Shown in pieces: positions 6,001 to 12,000 of a DNA stretch of 57,185 nt. Every line of letters begins with the position of its first letter. Position 1 is the first letter of the stretch. The stretch is from Dehalococcoidia bacterium (GTDB taxonomy: Bacteria > Chloroflexota > Dehalococcoidia > Lucifugimonadales > UBA3495). The position numbers are program-made. The stretch lies in contig JASLXV010000079.1 in NCBI GenBank assembly GCA_030740155.1, forward strand, positions 1-57,185, written 5' to 3'.

Positions 6001-9000
6001 CCTGCACCTGGTGCCGTTCTTCGTCGGCCTGGGAGCGTCGCCGGTCAGGGCTGCCTGGCTGGCCGGCATGGTGGGGGTCATGAGCATTCCGGGCCGGTTC
6101 GGGCTGAGCACGCTGGGGGACTACGTAAACCGCCGGTACGTAATGGCGGCATCGCTGGCCACGATGACCGTCGCCATCATTTTTATAGCCAGGGCCAGCA
6201 GCGTCTCCGGGGTCTTACCGGTCCTGCTGTTGTACTCGGCGTCTCAAGGGGGTATCTCGGTGATTCCCCAGGCGATAATCGCCGAGTATTTCGGGCGGAG
6301 GTCATACGCCACCATTCAGGGATTTCGCAGCTTCATTCAAACGGCTGGGATTGTCGTGGGCCCAATCATCTCCGGGTACGTTTTTGATACCACCGGCAGC
6401 TATGAGAAGGCGTTCCTGGGCTTCTCCGGCGCCACCATCGCCTCCATGGTGCTAGTGCTGCTGGCCAAGCCTCCGAAACGAAAGATCGAGCCGGCGCGGT
6501 AGGTCCTGAGAGTCTCCGGTGGGTGCCGGCCCTCGCGGCTGGGCCTTGGCTCATACCCACCGTCGGAGGTGAGGCACCCTGCTCGTTCCTCTTTCGAAAA
6601 CTTTTGACTTGGCTGCAGCAACGATGTAGCATACGAACAGCAGGATTGTGAATACAATCACTGACTTGTCGAGCCCCTACCAACCCCGGCTTTTTTCACG
6701 AGGTGGGACTCATATGGGAGACGATATTATGGACCCGCAAGACCGGCAACCCCCCAGCTCTCCGCTCTCCGGGCCTCCGGTCAACCCGGCGTTCGCGGAA
6801 GCTCTGGAGGAACTGGTTGCGGTGGCTAGGCGGGGCCATAAACCCGACAGTCCCTTTTTCAACCCATCGAACGATTGGCTCACCGACCGCATGTCGATCT
6901 TTCAGGACCTGTCCCGTGAGAAACAAGAACAAATCTTGGAAGAGGCCCGGCAGATCGCTCAGGAGGCCGAGAAGGCCAATGCTGCCGGCAAGGCCGCCGG
7001 CCGGGCCTGGCCTGAGGTGGTGGTCCGGCTGGATAGTGGCGGCCTGGGCTTTTTCAGCCAGTTGGGTGTCGTGCGCCGGCCTGACCTGACCCAGTATTTC
7101 ATCGACGGCTTCACCAGGAACCGGGATGCCCTGGCATTCAGCGAGCCCAATCAAGCCCTCTTCGCCAAAGTCTTCAGTCACATTGCCAAGAAGATGGAGG
7201 AGCACTTTGCCTCCGGTGAGACCATCGTTCAATCGGACCGGAAGATTTGCGATGTACCCGGCCGGTCCTTCCACGCCCGCCAGCTTTTGTTCGGCACCCG
7301 CTATCTCCAGATCCCCGTCATGTGGCGGCAGTTGACCTTCGATTGCCCCGATGCTGAGCGCGTTCGGACGCCCGACATTCTGGAGGTCTCCCTCCCCGAG
7401 TGGCTGACCAGCCTGGGCCTACCCGAAGACCTCAAAGCACGGATCAAAGAATCCGGCCTGACCCAACTCGTGTTCAAGGCGCCGACCAAAGGCCTGTCCC
7501 TGCACTTGGGGTTCGATTACGTGGGCGAACACAAGATGGGTCCACTGACGATCGCCATGTTCCTGGTAAAACAGGTCAAGGGTCTGGCAGTCCAGGCGGC
7601 GCTCAGCCTGGCGCGAGCCAAGACCCTGGACGGAACCATGAAGAACACCGCCATGGTAACCGTCGGCCCGTCGCTACACGGTAAGAGCACCCTGACCATC
7701 ATGCTCGATCTCGTCAACAGTGAACTCGGCAAGAGCCTCAAGTTGAAAGTAGATCCCGAGGAAGGGGTCTTCCCGATGAACGATGACATCGTGCTCGTGC
7801 AACCACTGCCGGCGCCCATCGAGACGGTGCGCGATGGGAAGCCCGTCCGCATCCCTTACTCGATTGACGGCACCGAGAACAACATGTACGCGATGCCCTT
7901 TGGGCTGAACCAGGAAGAAGACCCGATTACCTACGAGGCTGTCCGAGGGACCAAGGAGGCCCCCAACACCGAAGAGGCACTGGAGAACGTGCCGATCGAC
8001 ATCGACACCGGGGTCCCCAACTTCAGGCTGAACCCGGTCCGCAACATGCGGGTAACCCTCTCCCGCCCCCGCCTCGTCGCCAGGAAAGGGGCCCAGCACG
8101 TAATCGAGAGCGTTACCAGCGGGCAAGATAGCGATACCGTGCACGTGCCAATGGAGCGCACCGACCGGGTTTTCTGGCAGGCGGTAATGCGGCTGAACAC
8201 GATCACCCCGCCGCTCAGGCGCCTAAACGCGAAACAGTTCGTGCGGGTACTGATGTACGGTGAAGCCGTTCAGATGGGGGCTGCGATCGGCACCATTGGC
8301 CGGCCCTACGTGGAGTATTTCTCCGACCCGTTCATCATCGGGTTGGAGGATGAGAACGCCAACTTGATGTACCATATCCTGCAACAGTTTGAGCAGGGCG
8401 GGCTGCCCCAAGAGTACTACGCCTTCAACACCGGTGGCGTCGGCGCGGATACCAACGACGAGGCCAGCGGCGAAGGATACAAGAAGGTCACCAGGGACCT
8501 GACGTTGATGCTCACGGAAGCGCTGCTGCGGGGCGCGGTGAAGTTCGAGCATGACCCCGCGTTGCGATCGGACGTCGCCGTGGCCATTGTTGACGCCCAG
8601 GGAAAGGAAGTCCTGGACCTTCGCAAGGAGTGGCTGCCCGAGACGATCTACGGACGGGAAGAGTACATCAAGCGCATCGCGGAGTTGAGCAGAATACGGT
8701 ACTACGGACGGGACGACCAGGACAAGGCCGGCATCCTCCGGTACACCAAGGTCGTCAACGAGATGTACGATATCGAAGACATCCCCAATCCAGCCAACGA
8801 GCGGGAGCTGAGTTGGCTGCTGTCTTTTTACTGGAACGTGGACCAGGCGTACAGTTCGCTCCCCGACCTGGCGCTGCATCAAGGAGAGGGCCGGCGGCCA
8901 CCGGCCGATACTCTGGAGGCCATTCAGAAGATGTACCAGGCGGGCCGGAACCAGGGCCTTGAAGTGCCCGTTGACAGCCAAGGCGCCTTGGCGGAGCTGG

Positions 9001-12000
9001 GGATCCGCGGGAACGGCTAGGGAACTATCCCGAGGGACGGTTCGAGGAGCGTAACGCGAACGGCGGAGAAGCGCTCCGGCCATTCTTTCCGAGCTTGTCG
9101 AAGGACTGTCCTTGCCCAAGGGCGGCAGCTTTGGGTTGGTTGCCCGAAGGGCCCGCGAAGTTCGATCTCACGACGTTGCAGCCGGCGGCGAACCCACACC
9201 GGTCCGGCGATGCGGTCACTGGCTGGAGGTGCCACCATGGCGGCAAGCGCGTATATCTTGATTAACACGGAGCCCGCGAGCACCCGGGCGATCCTCGAGC
9301 AGGTGCAGGGGATTCCCGGGGCGGTGGTTCACGAGGTCCTGGGGCCGTACGATCTGGTCGTCGACCTGGAAGCGGACACCCAGGAGGACGTCACCGCGAT
9401 CCTGCGCCACAAGATCCGCCCCATCCACGGCATCACCAACACCGTGACCTGCGTCTGCATTTAGGCCCGGCGGAGAGGGACGCTCCCGTCACCGGCAATT
9501 GGGGTCACCGGACCGGTAAGAAGTCCCGCCACGATGTGACCGGCGCCTCCACCGGCTTGCTGAGTGATAACCGCAAGAATGCGCCGGGAGGGGGCCTCCA
9601 GGGCAGTCCATCCTCATCCGCCACGGCGCCCGGTTGGGGGCGCGGCCCCCATTTCCCTCGTTGGTGGCTTCTCGAAAGAAAACAGCCTCCCCAGTTCGAG
9701 GGAGTTCACCTCGAACTGGGGAGGCCGAGTGGCCAAGTGGCCAAGTGCTATCGGTGAACGCGGGTCAGGCAACCGGGAAAACGATGACCTTGGCCGCGCC
9801 GGGCATTGTTGGTTTTATTTTGACCCGAAGAGCTTCGAGAAGAACCCCGGCTTGCGCTCGCTCTCTCCGGAGCCGCCCGAGACTCCTCCGCCGGAGCCGT
9901 TGCTGAAACGGCCCTCGAGTGCGGTTAGCCACTCGCGCTCGGCGGGATCGATCTCATCTTGAACCCATTGGATTATCCAGCGGGGATCATCGGCCCCTTC
10001 TTCGGTCAGGATCTGCTTGACCATGTCAAGCTGTTCCTGCTCGCTCATCCGTTCCTTTACCACGGAGCACACAAACGCTTCTTCATTCTCGAAGTGATCG
10101 TACTCTAGGATTCGAAGCGCCATGATCCGCCGGTACAGGTGCCTCCTGGTCCGGCCGGTAACGGTGCTCTCCCCTAGCGCGGCCTTCAAGGCGGCCTCAA
10201 CCTCTTGTGCCTTATCCGCCAGCTCCTGGTGCTGACCGTCCTCCATAGAGAGCATGGCAGCTTTCACGCTCTCTTCCAATCCGGCTCCATCGCCCTTTTC
10301 GATGAAACCCACCAGGCCTGTGCCCTGAGCCGCCAGCTCGGCGTGCTCGGACTCGTTGTCCCGGGCCGGCTGACAATCGGTCAAGGGGGCGGTCATGACC
10401 TTATCTTCGATGGTGGCGTGATAGAGCAGTTGCTTCATCCAGAACATGAAAGCTTCTTTAAGTGCTCCCAGGTCGCCGCCGCTCTGCGCCTCGGCCGCCA
10501 ACGCCTCCGTCCGCTCCGACTGGGCCCGGAAGGCTTTGTGCATCAGGATCATCATGTCAATGGGGGCCTCAAGTTTGGTAGTCTCCAATGCCATCGTCAG
10601 ACCTCCTTGCTCTTTTCGTGGAATGTGTGGTCCGCCACACCCGATAGGCGCTGTCCGCCAGAAATCGAGAGCCGGAACGTTCGGTCAGTCTAGCTTTTCC
10701 GAGCCGTTGCCGTCAAGAGGGTGAAGAATCTCCGATTCTGCTCTCCCACTTTCTGCCGGGCCAAAGCCATGGGGCGCGCTCGCCGGGCCGGCCTTTCAGC
10801 GGGTCTGTGTTGGCGGCGCCCGGCTCGGGGAGCCGCGGGTCCCGCTAGCCATCTGAGGGCACCGACCCATTGAAACGGGCCTCCAGGTCCGCCAGCAGCT
10901 TCTGCTCGCCCGAACTCAAATCCCGGGTTACCCAGTCAACTATCCAGCGGGGGTCGTCGGCCTGATCGTCGATTAAGAGGGCCCTGGCCACCGTGAGCTG
11001 CTGCTCCTCGGTCAGCCGCTGGCGCACCATGGGCAGGACCAATGCCTCCTCGGATTCCAGGTGGTCTTCCTGAGTTATCCGCAGGGAGACTACCTGCCGG
11101 TAAAGGTGTTGCTTCGTGCGGGTGATGATGCTGGTCGCTCCAATATCCTCGTCCAGCACTGTCAGCACCTCTTGGACTTGTTCGACCAACTCCTCGTGTT
11201 CGGCATCCTCCTGGGCCAACAGGGCCATTTTCACCCTCACCGATAATTCCGCTTCCCCGCCTTCCGACTCTTCTCGCTTGCCCATATCGGCGCCCATCTC
11301 CGCTTCGGCGTGATACAAGAGGGCCGTTGCCCAAGAGTTGAAAGCCAGCTTGAAGGTTTGCAGGCTGCTGCCGTCCTCCAGGTCTACCACCGCCTTTTCC
11401 GTTCGGACGGCCTCGGCGCGCAGCGCCTTGTGGATCAGAAACATCACATCTAAAGGTTGCTCTAGGCTGGTGATTTCGGACGACATCCGAGACCTCCTCA
11501 GTGATGTTGCTCCAGTGATGTTGCTCCGTTTCCAACCGGCCGTACCCGCAGCCGAGACACCAAGAATCGTTTCGCCTCCTCTGGGGCCCGCGCCTCAGAG
11601 AATACTGGATGTTGATATGAATCCGGTTATTATATTGGTTATTTGAGGGATTGTCACATCATATAAGAATCAATTCTCCTTTGACTGGAAATCAGGGTTC
11701 GGAGCACGAAACCTTTGGTCATTTCGTTCACTCGGGCGGTCCTGCCTCCGGAGTCTCGTTTCGGGCCGAGTTTCGCTCGCCGACGACCGGGCCCCCGGAA
11801 ATGAAAAAGGATTATCTTGGGCAACACCGCCGGGGACGAAGCGAGCCGCCGGAAGGCTGGATCGGGGAATGCGCCGGGGGCCTTGACCCCACCCGGGAGC
11901 TGGACGATCCTTCCCAATCGCGTTGGCCAGGAGCGCGGCCTGCCAAGCCCGGAAGGCGGGCATCGCGTTCCCAGCGTGGGATTTCCCGGCGCACCGCGTC

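Follow-up and report, generated by a model that had tools for sequence, protein, structure and literature searches.

A long-branched, probably functional ATP-type PEP carboxykinase with altered metal-ligand residues in a family of Dehalococcoidia

A divergent PEP carboxykinase (PEPCK) homologue of a Dehalococcoidia bacterium is about 75% likely to be a working PEPCK, and probably does the same job as the known types with a different metal chemistry. Its gene lies in the window analysed here (the whole 57,185-nucleotide stretch of contig JASLXV010000079.1, assembly GCA_030740155.1), and the 768-aa product and its orthologues are together called the new-type PEPCK. The new type is a long-branched offshoot of the Aeropyrum/Kuenenia-like ATP-PEPCK subfamily and not a separate fourth class; as read from the alignments, it lacks two of the three usual ligands of the catalytic manganese and retains the substrate-binding and phosphoryl-transfer residues (Table 1).

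Table 1. Positions of the new-type PEPCK gene, its motifs and its flanking features in the window; equal signs give E. coli numbering
Feature	Position	Strand	Evidence
MFS transporter gene, upstream; synteny marker common only to genome G538	5162..6502	+	profile match, locus comparison
Sigma-70-like promoter site (TTGACT, 17 nt, TAGCAT)	6604..6632	+	consensus match only; 2 found vs 0.6 expected in region
New-type PEPCK gene (divergent, PEPCK fold)	6714..9020	+	ORF, profile match, predicted structure
R121 (= R65, substrate binding) and family-specific R122	7074..7079	+	profile and joint alignment
PEPCK-specific motif, residues 269-276: Y269 = Y207, new H273, K274 = K212, M275 at metal ligand K213	7518..7541	+	alignment; PMC2684135
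Q294 at metal ligand H232	7593..7595	+	profile and joint alignment
P-loop, residues 318-326: K324 = K254, S325 = T255, new invariant H322 at T252 column	7665..7691	+	alignment
Kinase-2 motif N356-D357-D358 (= D268, D269)	7779..7787	+	alignment
N444 and R446 (= N331, R333)	8043..8051	+	alignment
K591 to T597, place of adenine-pocket motif R449-x5-T455; next Arg missing	8484..8504	+	alignment
Helical extension at the C-terminus, about residues 693-768, absent from solved PEPCKs	8790..9017	+	predicted structure, structure comparison
New-type gene stretch surviving as remnant behind the G538 GTP-PEPCK, 80% nucleotide identity	8810..9019	+	locus comparison
Lrp/AsnC ligand-binding-domain gene, downstream; synteny marker common only to G538	9210..9464	+	profile match, locus comparison

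Results

The open reading frame was borne out where an earlier note on this DNA had placed it, and an alternative ATG at 6729 would give 763 aa, the length typical of most homologues. The sequence isolation described in that note was reproduced: the Pfam match is weak (PF01293, E 6.8e-9; 35.4 bits against a gathering score of 26.5, over a partial stretch only, with several orthologues below that score), the NF006821 score of 118.9 bits (119 in the note) falls short of the curated cut-off of 369, a sequence search of the PDB again gave no match, and 1.84 billion representatives contain one full-length cluster (1380 bits), the next near-full-length relative scoring 138 bits. The new type is labelled hypothetical in many database records, and none of the papers linking SAR202 and carboxykinase is on it, as judged from their listings. 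Near-identical pieces of the gene occur in RNA-library contigs of two studies; because neighbouring genes appear there at similar depth, these contigs show the presence of the gene and not its transcription.

The fold was earlier considered weakly supported (pLDDT 56, TM 0.2-0.3), a judgement overturned by the AF2 model, with a pLDDT of 91.4, a pTM of 0.91 and TM-scores by target of 0.71-0.77. In this predicted model the two-lobed fold of the PEPCK superfamily spans the whole chain, whereas HPr kinase/phosphorylase, which has the P-loop domain in common (Z about 6, 141-145 residues), matches one lobe only. The best structural matches are canonical ATP-PEPCKs (E. coli Pck, Thermus, Trypanosoma; PF01293, TIGR00224), with Z 27.8 and an rmsd of 2.9 over 491 residues, although identity to them is 15-19% and the new type has insertions and the helical C-terminal extension, which, as part of the whole-chain model, found weak helical matches only (Z at most 4.2; Atlas scores below 0.8). 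GTP types share the fold (Z about 21.5-21.8) but no sequence match, and the PF00821 (GTP-PEPCK) profile matched neither the new-type protein nor anything in the new-type genome G000. PPi types belong to the same superfamily (Z 16.6), but are about 1100 aa long and retain KK, H and DD (PMC13147460), whereas the protein encoded here has 768 aa, K-M and Q.

Within the ATP types, profile comparison joined residues 24-667 to the NF006821-like subfamily (PRK09344.1-3) over 510 columns (probability 100%, E 4e-54); the direct comparison with E. coli Pck alone reached a probability of 7%, and residues were instead mapped by way of the subfamily, in an alignment of both together. The tree nests the new type within this subfamily on a stem of 2.0 changes per site, and an origin from Lys213→Met enzymes of the same family was not rejected by the topology test (p-AU 0.446), nor was it demonstrated. 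Thus the gap in sequence behind the earlier description as a new, isolated type is real (no intermediates were found among the 150 representatives), but fold, profile and tree do not leave the type isolated. One fragment among those representatives has Ala at 294.

Residue conservation was assessed in 204 new-type sequences, with some redundancy, against 42 other rows. R121, Y269, K274, K324, S325, D357, D358, N444 and R446 are invariant in all 204, so that R65, Y207, K212, K254, D268, D269 and R333 of the canonical ATP types are kept; the five-residue criterion R65, K212, K254, D269 and R333 (list: PMC13147460) finds R121, K274, K324, D358 and R446 in every sequence. That the protein has the PEPCK fold but no catalytic activity, and acts as a scaffold or regulator, has a precedent in the PEPCK-fold subunit of Euglena complex I, but it is very hard to credit here, as the catalytic Arg, Lys and Asp are invariant and most carriers are without another PEPCK.

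The Lys-His-Asp metal site is common to ATP-, GTP- and PPi-PEPCKs (PMC13147460, PMC2684135). In the new type, Lys213 is replaced by Met and His232 by Gln in 204/204, and Lys288 by Met (164/204) or Val (40/204); two histidines are new and invariant, H273 at column 211 and H322 at column 252, the reactive Cys column of GTP types. The Gln for the conserved His had been seen before and stands, but the account of the change as His→Gln missed the other two replacements and both histidines; likewise the GEHK motif is not simply kept, but aligns to E. coli GEMKK with the metal-binding second Lys turned into Met. The Lys213→Met change is shared by 11 of the 42 comparison rows and was already known in the NF006821-like subfamily, e.g. 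in Aeropyrum pernix (PMC2684135 Table 2). The new type differs from that subfamily in being about 220 aa longer, at 21-30% identity, in the His232→Gln and Lys288→Met/Val changes, and in the His at columns 211 and 252 (0/42 others). A survey that accepted ATP-PEPCKs by eight residues included K213, H232 and K288 (PMC13147460), and the alteration of these three counts against a working PEPCK; loss of the second Lys has been suggested possibly to abolish the metal site (PMC2684135).

The nucleotide site is mixed. In place of the adenine-pocket motif R-x5-T-R, K591-x5-T597 is present without the final Arg, and T573 is kept; the P-loop P-S-L-H-G-K resembles P-S-A-C-G-K of GTP types in having Pro, in lacking the middle Gly and in placing a side chain that could bind metal at the corresponding column, although GTP types retain the Lys, His and Asp ligands. 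Together with the loss of Lys288 and the absence of a clear nucleotide motif in the parent subfamily (PMC2684135), this would fit a PEPCK whose phosphoryl donor is a different one or less strictly chosen (GTP/ITP, PPi or polyphosphate), its nucleotide site reshaped by the P-loop, the Lys288 loss and the extra 220 residues. We consider this unlikely: structure and profile are closest to ATP types, K591, T597 and T573 are retained, and for PPi the known enzymes differ in length and match far more poorly in structure.

In a family sample of 61 genomes, 46 had the new type, 10 the ATP type, one the GTP type and four none (67-85% complete), and no genome had two intact types together. The mutual exclusivity claimed earlier thus holds within the family, but at order level (131 genomes: new type 27, ATP 8, GTP 0, none 96) it is not beyond chance (P of no overlap 0.15); replacement of the known types "in SAR202" was too wide a statement, being true of one family-level group. 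The ATP type is confined to four genera of the family, and these occurrences, in kin that are not independent, may reflect one event. This partner is itself a Lys213→Met enzyme, a putative PEPCK, which weakens the same-job argument. A search of G000 alone with PPi-PEPCK motifs, run without a positive control, gave no match.

The locus comparisons go beyond co-occurrence. In G538, a genome of the same genus (one draft, 90% complete, 7% contamination), a complete GTP-PEPCK is flanked by these MFS and AsnC genes; the common stretch ends with the promoter-like site, the GTP-PEPCK then follows, and behind it lies a 210-nt new-type 3' remnant. This is a clear case of displacement in place of the new type by the GTP type, the reverse of the direction in the earlier note. 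At the greA/qor slot, ATP-type genes stand where 23 other loci have new-type genes, and the GreA tree requires at least one ATP-to-new change whatever the root. The earlier suggestion of the same job is strengthened because the new type swaps with both GTP and ATP types at the same chromosomal loci.

An operon clue to function was sought across 87 new-type loci, which had no common pathway neighbours; the flanks are housekeeping genes that differ by lineage. Both this and the swaps, which would have to be coincidence, speak against a kinase or carboxykinase that acts on a different 2-oxo acid or metabolite, with exclusivity as lineage history. Such a substrate, to which the four coupled active-site changes without intermediates among the representatives, the long stem and the extra R122 would be suited, is in our view highly improbable.

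Yeast K213 and H233Q mutants reportedly lose most carboxykinase activity and keep the side activities, which is offered as support for an oxaloacetate decarboxylase or pyruvate-kinase-like enzyme whose side activities outlived the loss of both nitrogen ligands. Pyruvate kinase was not found in 14/27 new-type against 28/104 other genomes, and since PEPCK plus pyruvate kinase could stand in for a decarboxylase, the swaps do not fully exclude it. We nevertheless regard this reading as decidedly unlikely. A decarboxylase has no need for an invariant P-loop, Mg ligands and R446, and malic enzyme is also present in 32/46 new-type family genomes; as for pyruvate-kinase replacement, that enzyme is retained in the other 13 of the 27, among them G000, and the genomes in which it was missed are concentrated in three families. 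In favour of a working PEPCK as C3-C4 link, G000 has a PPDK-family gene as well and gave no match for PEP carboxylase, a pyruvate carboxylase/oxaloacetate decarboxylase domain or malic enzyme, all three of which are missing in 12/46 new-type family genomes.

Discussion

The explanation we favour, at somewhat better than even odds, is an active ATP/ADP-using PEPCK that descended from the Aeropyrum/Kuenenia-like (NF006821) ATP subfamily, had its metal position rebuilt and serves as a housekeeping C3-C4 link of the host cells. It would catalyse oxaloacetate + ATP = PEP + CO2 + ADP, with oxaloacetate/PEP bound by R121, Y269, K274 and R446, while K324, S325 and D357 would play their usual part in holding the Mg-nucleotide and in phosphate transfer. 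The second metal would still be anchored by D358, with the two nitrogen ligands gone. Its site may be all-oxygen (D358, the Q294 carbonyl, water, substrate and phosphate), and would then be better suited to Mg or Ca than to Mn, or may be completed by the new P-loop His322. More tentatively, at less than even odds, the new type may be a natural Mn-independent PEPCK without both nitrogen ligands, with either of these sites, metal-sparing, fixed across a large marine SAR202-like lineage and interchangeable with the ATP and GTP types.

Residue-based filters would reject the new-type PEPCK. If it works without the Lys and His, PEPCK chemistry would not depend on them, and the new type would be a natural test of the role of the second metal. 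A Mn-independent carboxykinase could serve CO2-fixing pathways, and, for a large marine lineage, a working PEPCK would supply the C3-C4 link that its metabolic models lack.

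Sequence, fold and class

The genomic evidence predicts that the divergent enzyme encoded in the window and its orthologues (the new type) work like PEPCK. As the earlier note had described, the protein matched Pfam PEPCK_ATP only weakly (E 6.8e-9), scored 118.9 bits against a cut-off of 369 with NF006821, the Aeropyrum/Kuenenia-like ATP-PEPCK subfamily profile, and had no match in a PDB sequence search. Of 7998 candidates scored in a homologue search, 1005 qualified; the matches listed (120 of 1005) had identities of 68-88%, and source databases already give some of them the name PEPCK (ATP). 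A relative was encoded in 274 of 283 candidate stretches of the GTDB collection; 79 of the 80 kept stretches had Dehalococcoidia, Chloroflexota or SAR202 in their titles and one 'uncultured bacterium', and the SAR202 label of the genome of the window (G000) is inferred from these relatives. The single full-length cluster reported before was recovered among 1.84 billion representatives (1380 bits), followed by fragments and then, after a large gap, by a 539-aa relative at 138 bits. No paper on this protein was found in the open-licence literature.

Features discussed in the text
Feature	Location	Strand	Remark
MFS gene	window 5162-6502	+	upstream flank
New-type PEPCK-fold gene	window 6714-9020	+	768-aa protein
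AsnC gene	window 9210-9464	+	downstream flank
Two tandem small helical genes	window 9815-11486	-	hemerythrin match for the first
Dispersed repeat, about 60-120 nt	window 17802-17880, 21763-22000, 39307-39455		palindromic parts
ATP-type PEPCKs of the family	L107:4268-5902, L108:4310-5968
Extended GreA	L114:3173-4279
NF006821-type PEPCK gene of a distant relative, then a gene reading like malic enzyme	L002:1015-3931		malic enzyme label by inspection

Between a profile of 40 orthologues and one of distant relatives the match had a probability of 100% (E 4e-54) and spanned 510 alignment columns, which cover residues 24-667; E. coli Pck also aligned with these relatives at a probability of 100% in profile comparison, and most of those tested reached or approached the NF006821 cut-off. 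The AlphaFold2 model (pLDDT 91.4, pTM 0.91) does not count as evidence separate from the profile match, because its input alignment of 85 sequences held distant PEPCK relatives besides the orthologues. Its best Foldseek matches were ATP-PEPCKs (E about 2e-24, TM by target 0.71-0.77), which supersedes the weak fold support first noted (pLDDT 56, TM about 0.2-0.3). The structural Z was 27.8 against the Thermus ATP-PEPCK (rmsd 2.9, 491 residues), 21.8 against GTP types, 16.6 against the PPi type and about 6 against HPr kinases. The surplus length is shared between two helical parts, an N-terminal insert and a C-terminal extension, and several inserts in loops. In a 52-row tree, the ten new-type rows formed one clade inside the NF006821-like group. 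Its stem measures 2.0 changes per site, its exact place within the group is unsettled and subject to a long-branch warning, and grouping with the same-family ATP enzymes was not rejected (p-AU 0.446). Row L020 of the alignments and trees comes from an unpublished genome (G168), and all claims stand without it. Profile match, structure and tree position therefore make the new type a derived ATP-lineage enzyme rather than a fourth independent class; the isolation claimed in the earlier note is seen in the sequence gap, but the tree nests the enzyme among known ones. A PEPCK with a phosphoryl donor other than ATP/ADP is unlikely here. Among the other homologues, P0192, P0199, P0219, P0253 and P0269 are giant proteins (1500-4731 aa) with an NF006821-like PEPCK domain, fused in P0192 to phosphoglycerate kinase, phosphoglycerate mutase, glycerate kinase and dehydrogenase domains and in P0199 to a phosphohexomutase domain.

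Active site

A census of 204 new-type sequences, 121 of them database proteins and 83 taken from loci (the two sets overlap in part), showed that R121, Y269, K274, S320, K324, S325, D357, D358, N444 and R446 are invariant (in E. coli Pck, in order, R65, Y207, K212, S250, K254, T255, D268, D269, N331 and R333). Equally in 204 of 204, K213 was replaced by Met275, H232 by Gln294, the invariant Gln already noticed, and K288 by Met or Val, and two new histidines were present, His273 (column 211) and His322 (column 252). Across 42 comparison rows, His232 and Lys288 were each kept in 41 and Lys213 in 28, with Met at 213 in 11 and His at column 211 or 252 in none. PMC13147460 gives R65, K212, K213, H232, K254, D269, K288 and R333 as the acceptance test for ATP-PEPCK, and KK, H and DD as motifs of the PPi type; the new type fails this canonical test, and the label of a standard ATP-PEPCK should therefore not be applied to it. 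According to PMC2684135, the second metal is bound by the second Lys, a position held by Met in Aeropyrum pernix PEPCK, so the Lys-to-Met change alone is already known. Metal site 1 consists of Asp, Lys and His, and the reactive Cys sits in the P-loop (PMC4370629), at the alignment column occupied by His322 in the new type; all-oxygen sites are taken by Mg and mixed oxygen-nitrogen sites by Mn (PMC12547629).

Our preferred reading, with a probability of about 0.6, is that the new type is predicted to interconvert oxaloacetate and PEP with ATP/ADP, for which the conserved substrate and phosphate residues would be used, while the second-metal site would have been rebuilt. The P-loop Cys of a GTP-type PEPCK can bind metal, and yeast K213 and H233Q mutants reportedly lost most activity. 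Action on another substrate seems distinctly improbable, and a dead scaffold very improbable indeed.

Lys213→Met with the His retained occurs in the family's own ATP-type PEPCKs (L107, L108) and in five or more further members of the subfamily; the substitution is scattered over the PEPCK tree, and no biochemical study of such an enzyme was found in the literature searched. The homologues P0257 and P0261 (R65→Leu, K213→Asn, R333→His) and P0268, degenerate at most active-site positions, may have a changed substrate or be pseudo-enzymes.

Distribution and metabolic context

The 61 family genomes comprised 46 with the new type (split across two contigs in one), 10 from four genera with the ATP type (one copy a fragment), one with the GTP type and four, 67-85% complete, with none. 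Mutual exclusivity, as claimed earlier, held within the family, where no genome had two intact types, but at the order level (131 genomes: new type 27, ATP type 8, GTP type 0, neither 96) zero overlap had a 15% probability by chance. These counts cover the new, ATP and GTP types and alone are modest evidence because kin genomes are not independent. In a phylum draw of 401 genomes the new type occurred in G000 only.

Genes for pyruvate kinase and of the PPDK family are present in G000 (94% complete), and family match searches found no PEP carboxylase of either kind, no pyruvate carboxylase/oxaloacetate decarboxylase domain and no malic enzyme. Across the 61 family genomes these were found in 0, 2 and 44, respectively, and all three were absent from 12 of the 46 new-type genomes. 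At the order level, pyruvate kinase was present in 13 of 27 new-type genomes and in 76 of 104 others. This favours a pyruvate-kinase-like role a little, but the difference clusters in three families; that the new type is a decarboxylase or a pyruvate-kinase-like enzyme is quite unlikely. On contig G479:C41 (locus L104) the new-type gene has pyruvate kinase some 4 kb away, a proximity that was not seen to recur. The gene pair at L002 is listed in the table.

Probable exchange of PEPCK types

G538, a congeneric genome at 90% completeness and 7% contamination, carries a complete 598-aa GTP-PEPCK, 58% identical to annotated GTP-PEPCKs, between the MFS and AsnC genes that flank the new-type gene in the window. 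Homology with the window runs up to 6632, where a sigma-70-like -10 box ends, and restarts at 8810; of the new-type gene the final 210 nt survive at 80% identity, only a little below the flanks (83-86%). The simplest reading is a recent in-place displacement of the new type by GTP-PEPCK. The dispersed repeat of the window matches this locus and many G000 contigs. Elsewhere in the window, RNA-library contigs were longest and deepest over the tandem helical genes, within the stretch compared.

The ATP-type gene is directly followed by greA in 8 of 8 anchorable loci, an order shared by 8 of 87 new-type loci. In another 15 of the 87 the gene lies in inverted orientation, with greA on one side and the quinone-oxidoreductase, SufT-like and Mrp genes on the other; these last three also adjoin 6 of the 8 ATP-type loci. 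This GreA (L114 and relatives) totals 260-370 aa with a long N-terminal extension, for which no Pfam match was found. In a GreA tree built without the GreA of other family members, the 15 inverted loci nested in the ATP grade (99) and the other 8 new-type loci fell outside, so that the tree requires two changes, at least one of them ATP-to-new under any root. Reciprocal loss from an ancestor that had both PEPCK genes also fits. Either history, swap or reciprocal loss, is typical of redundant genes.
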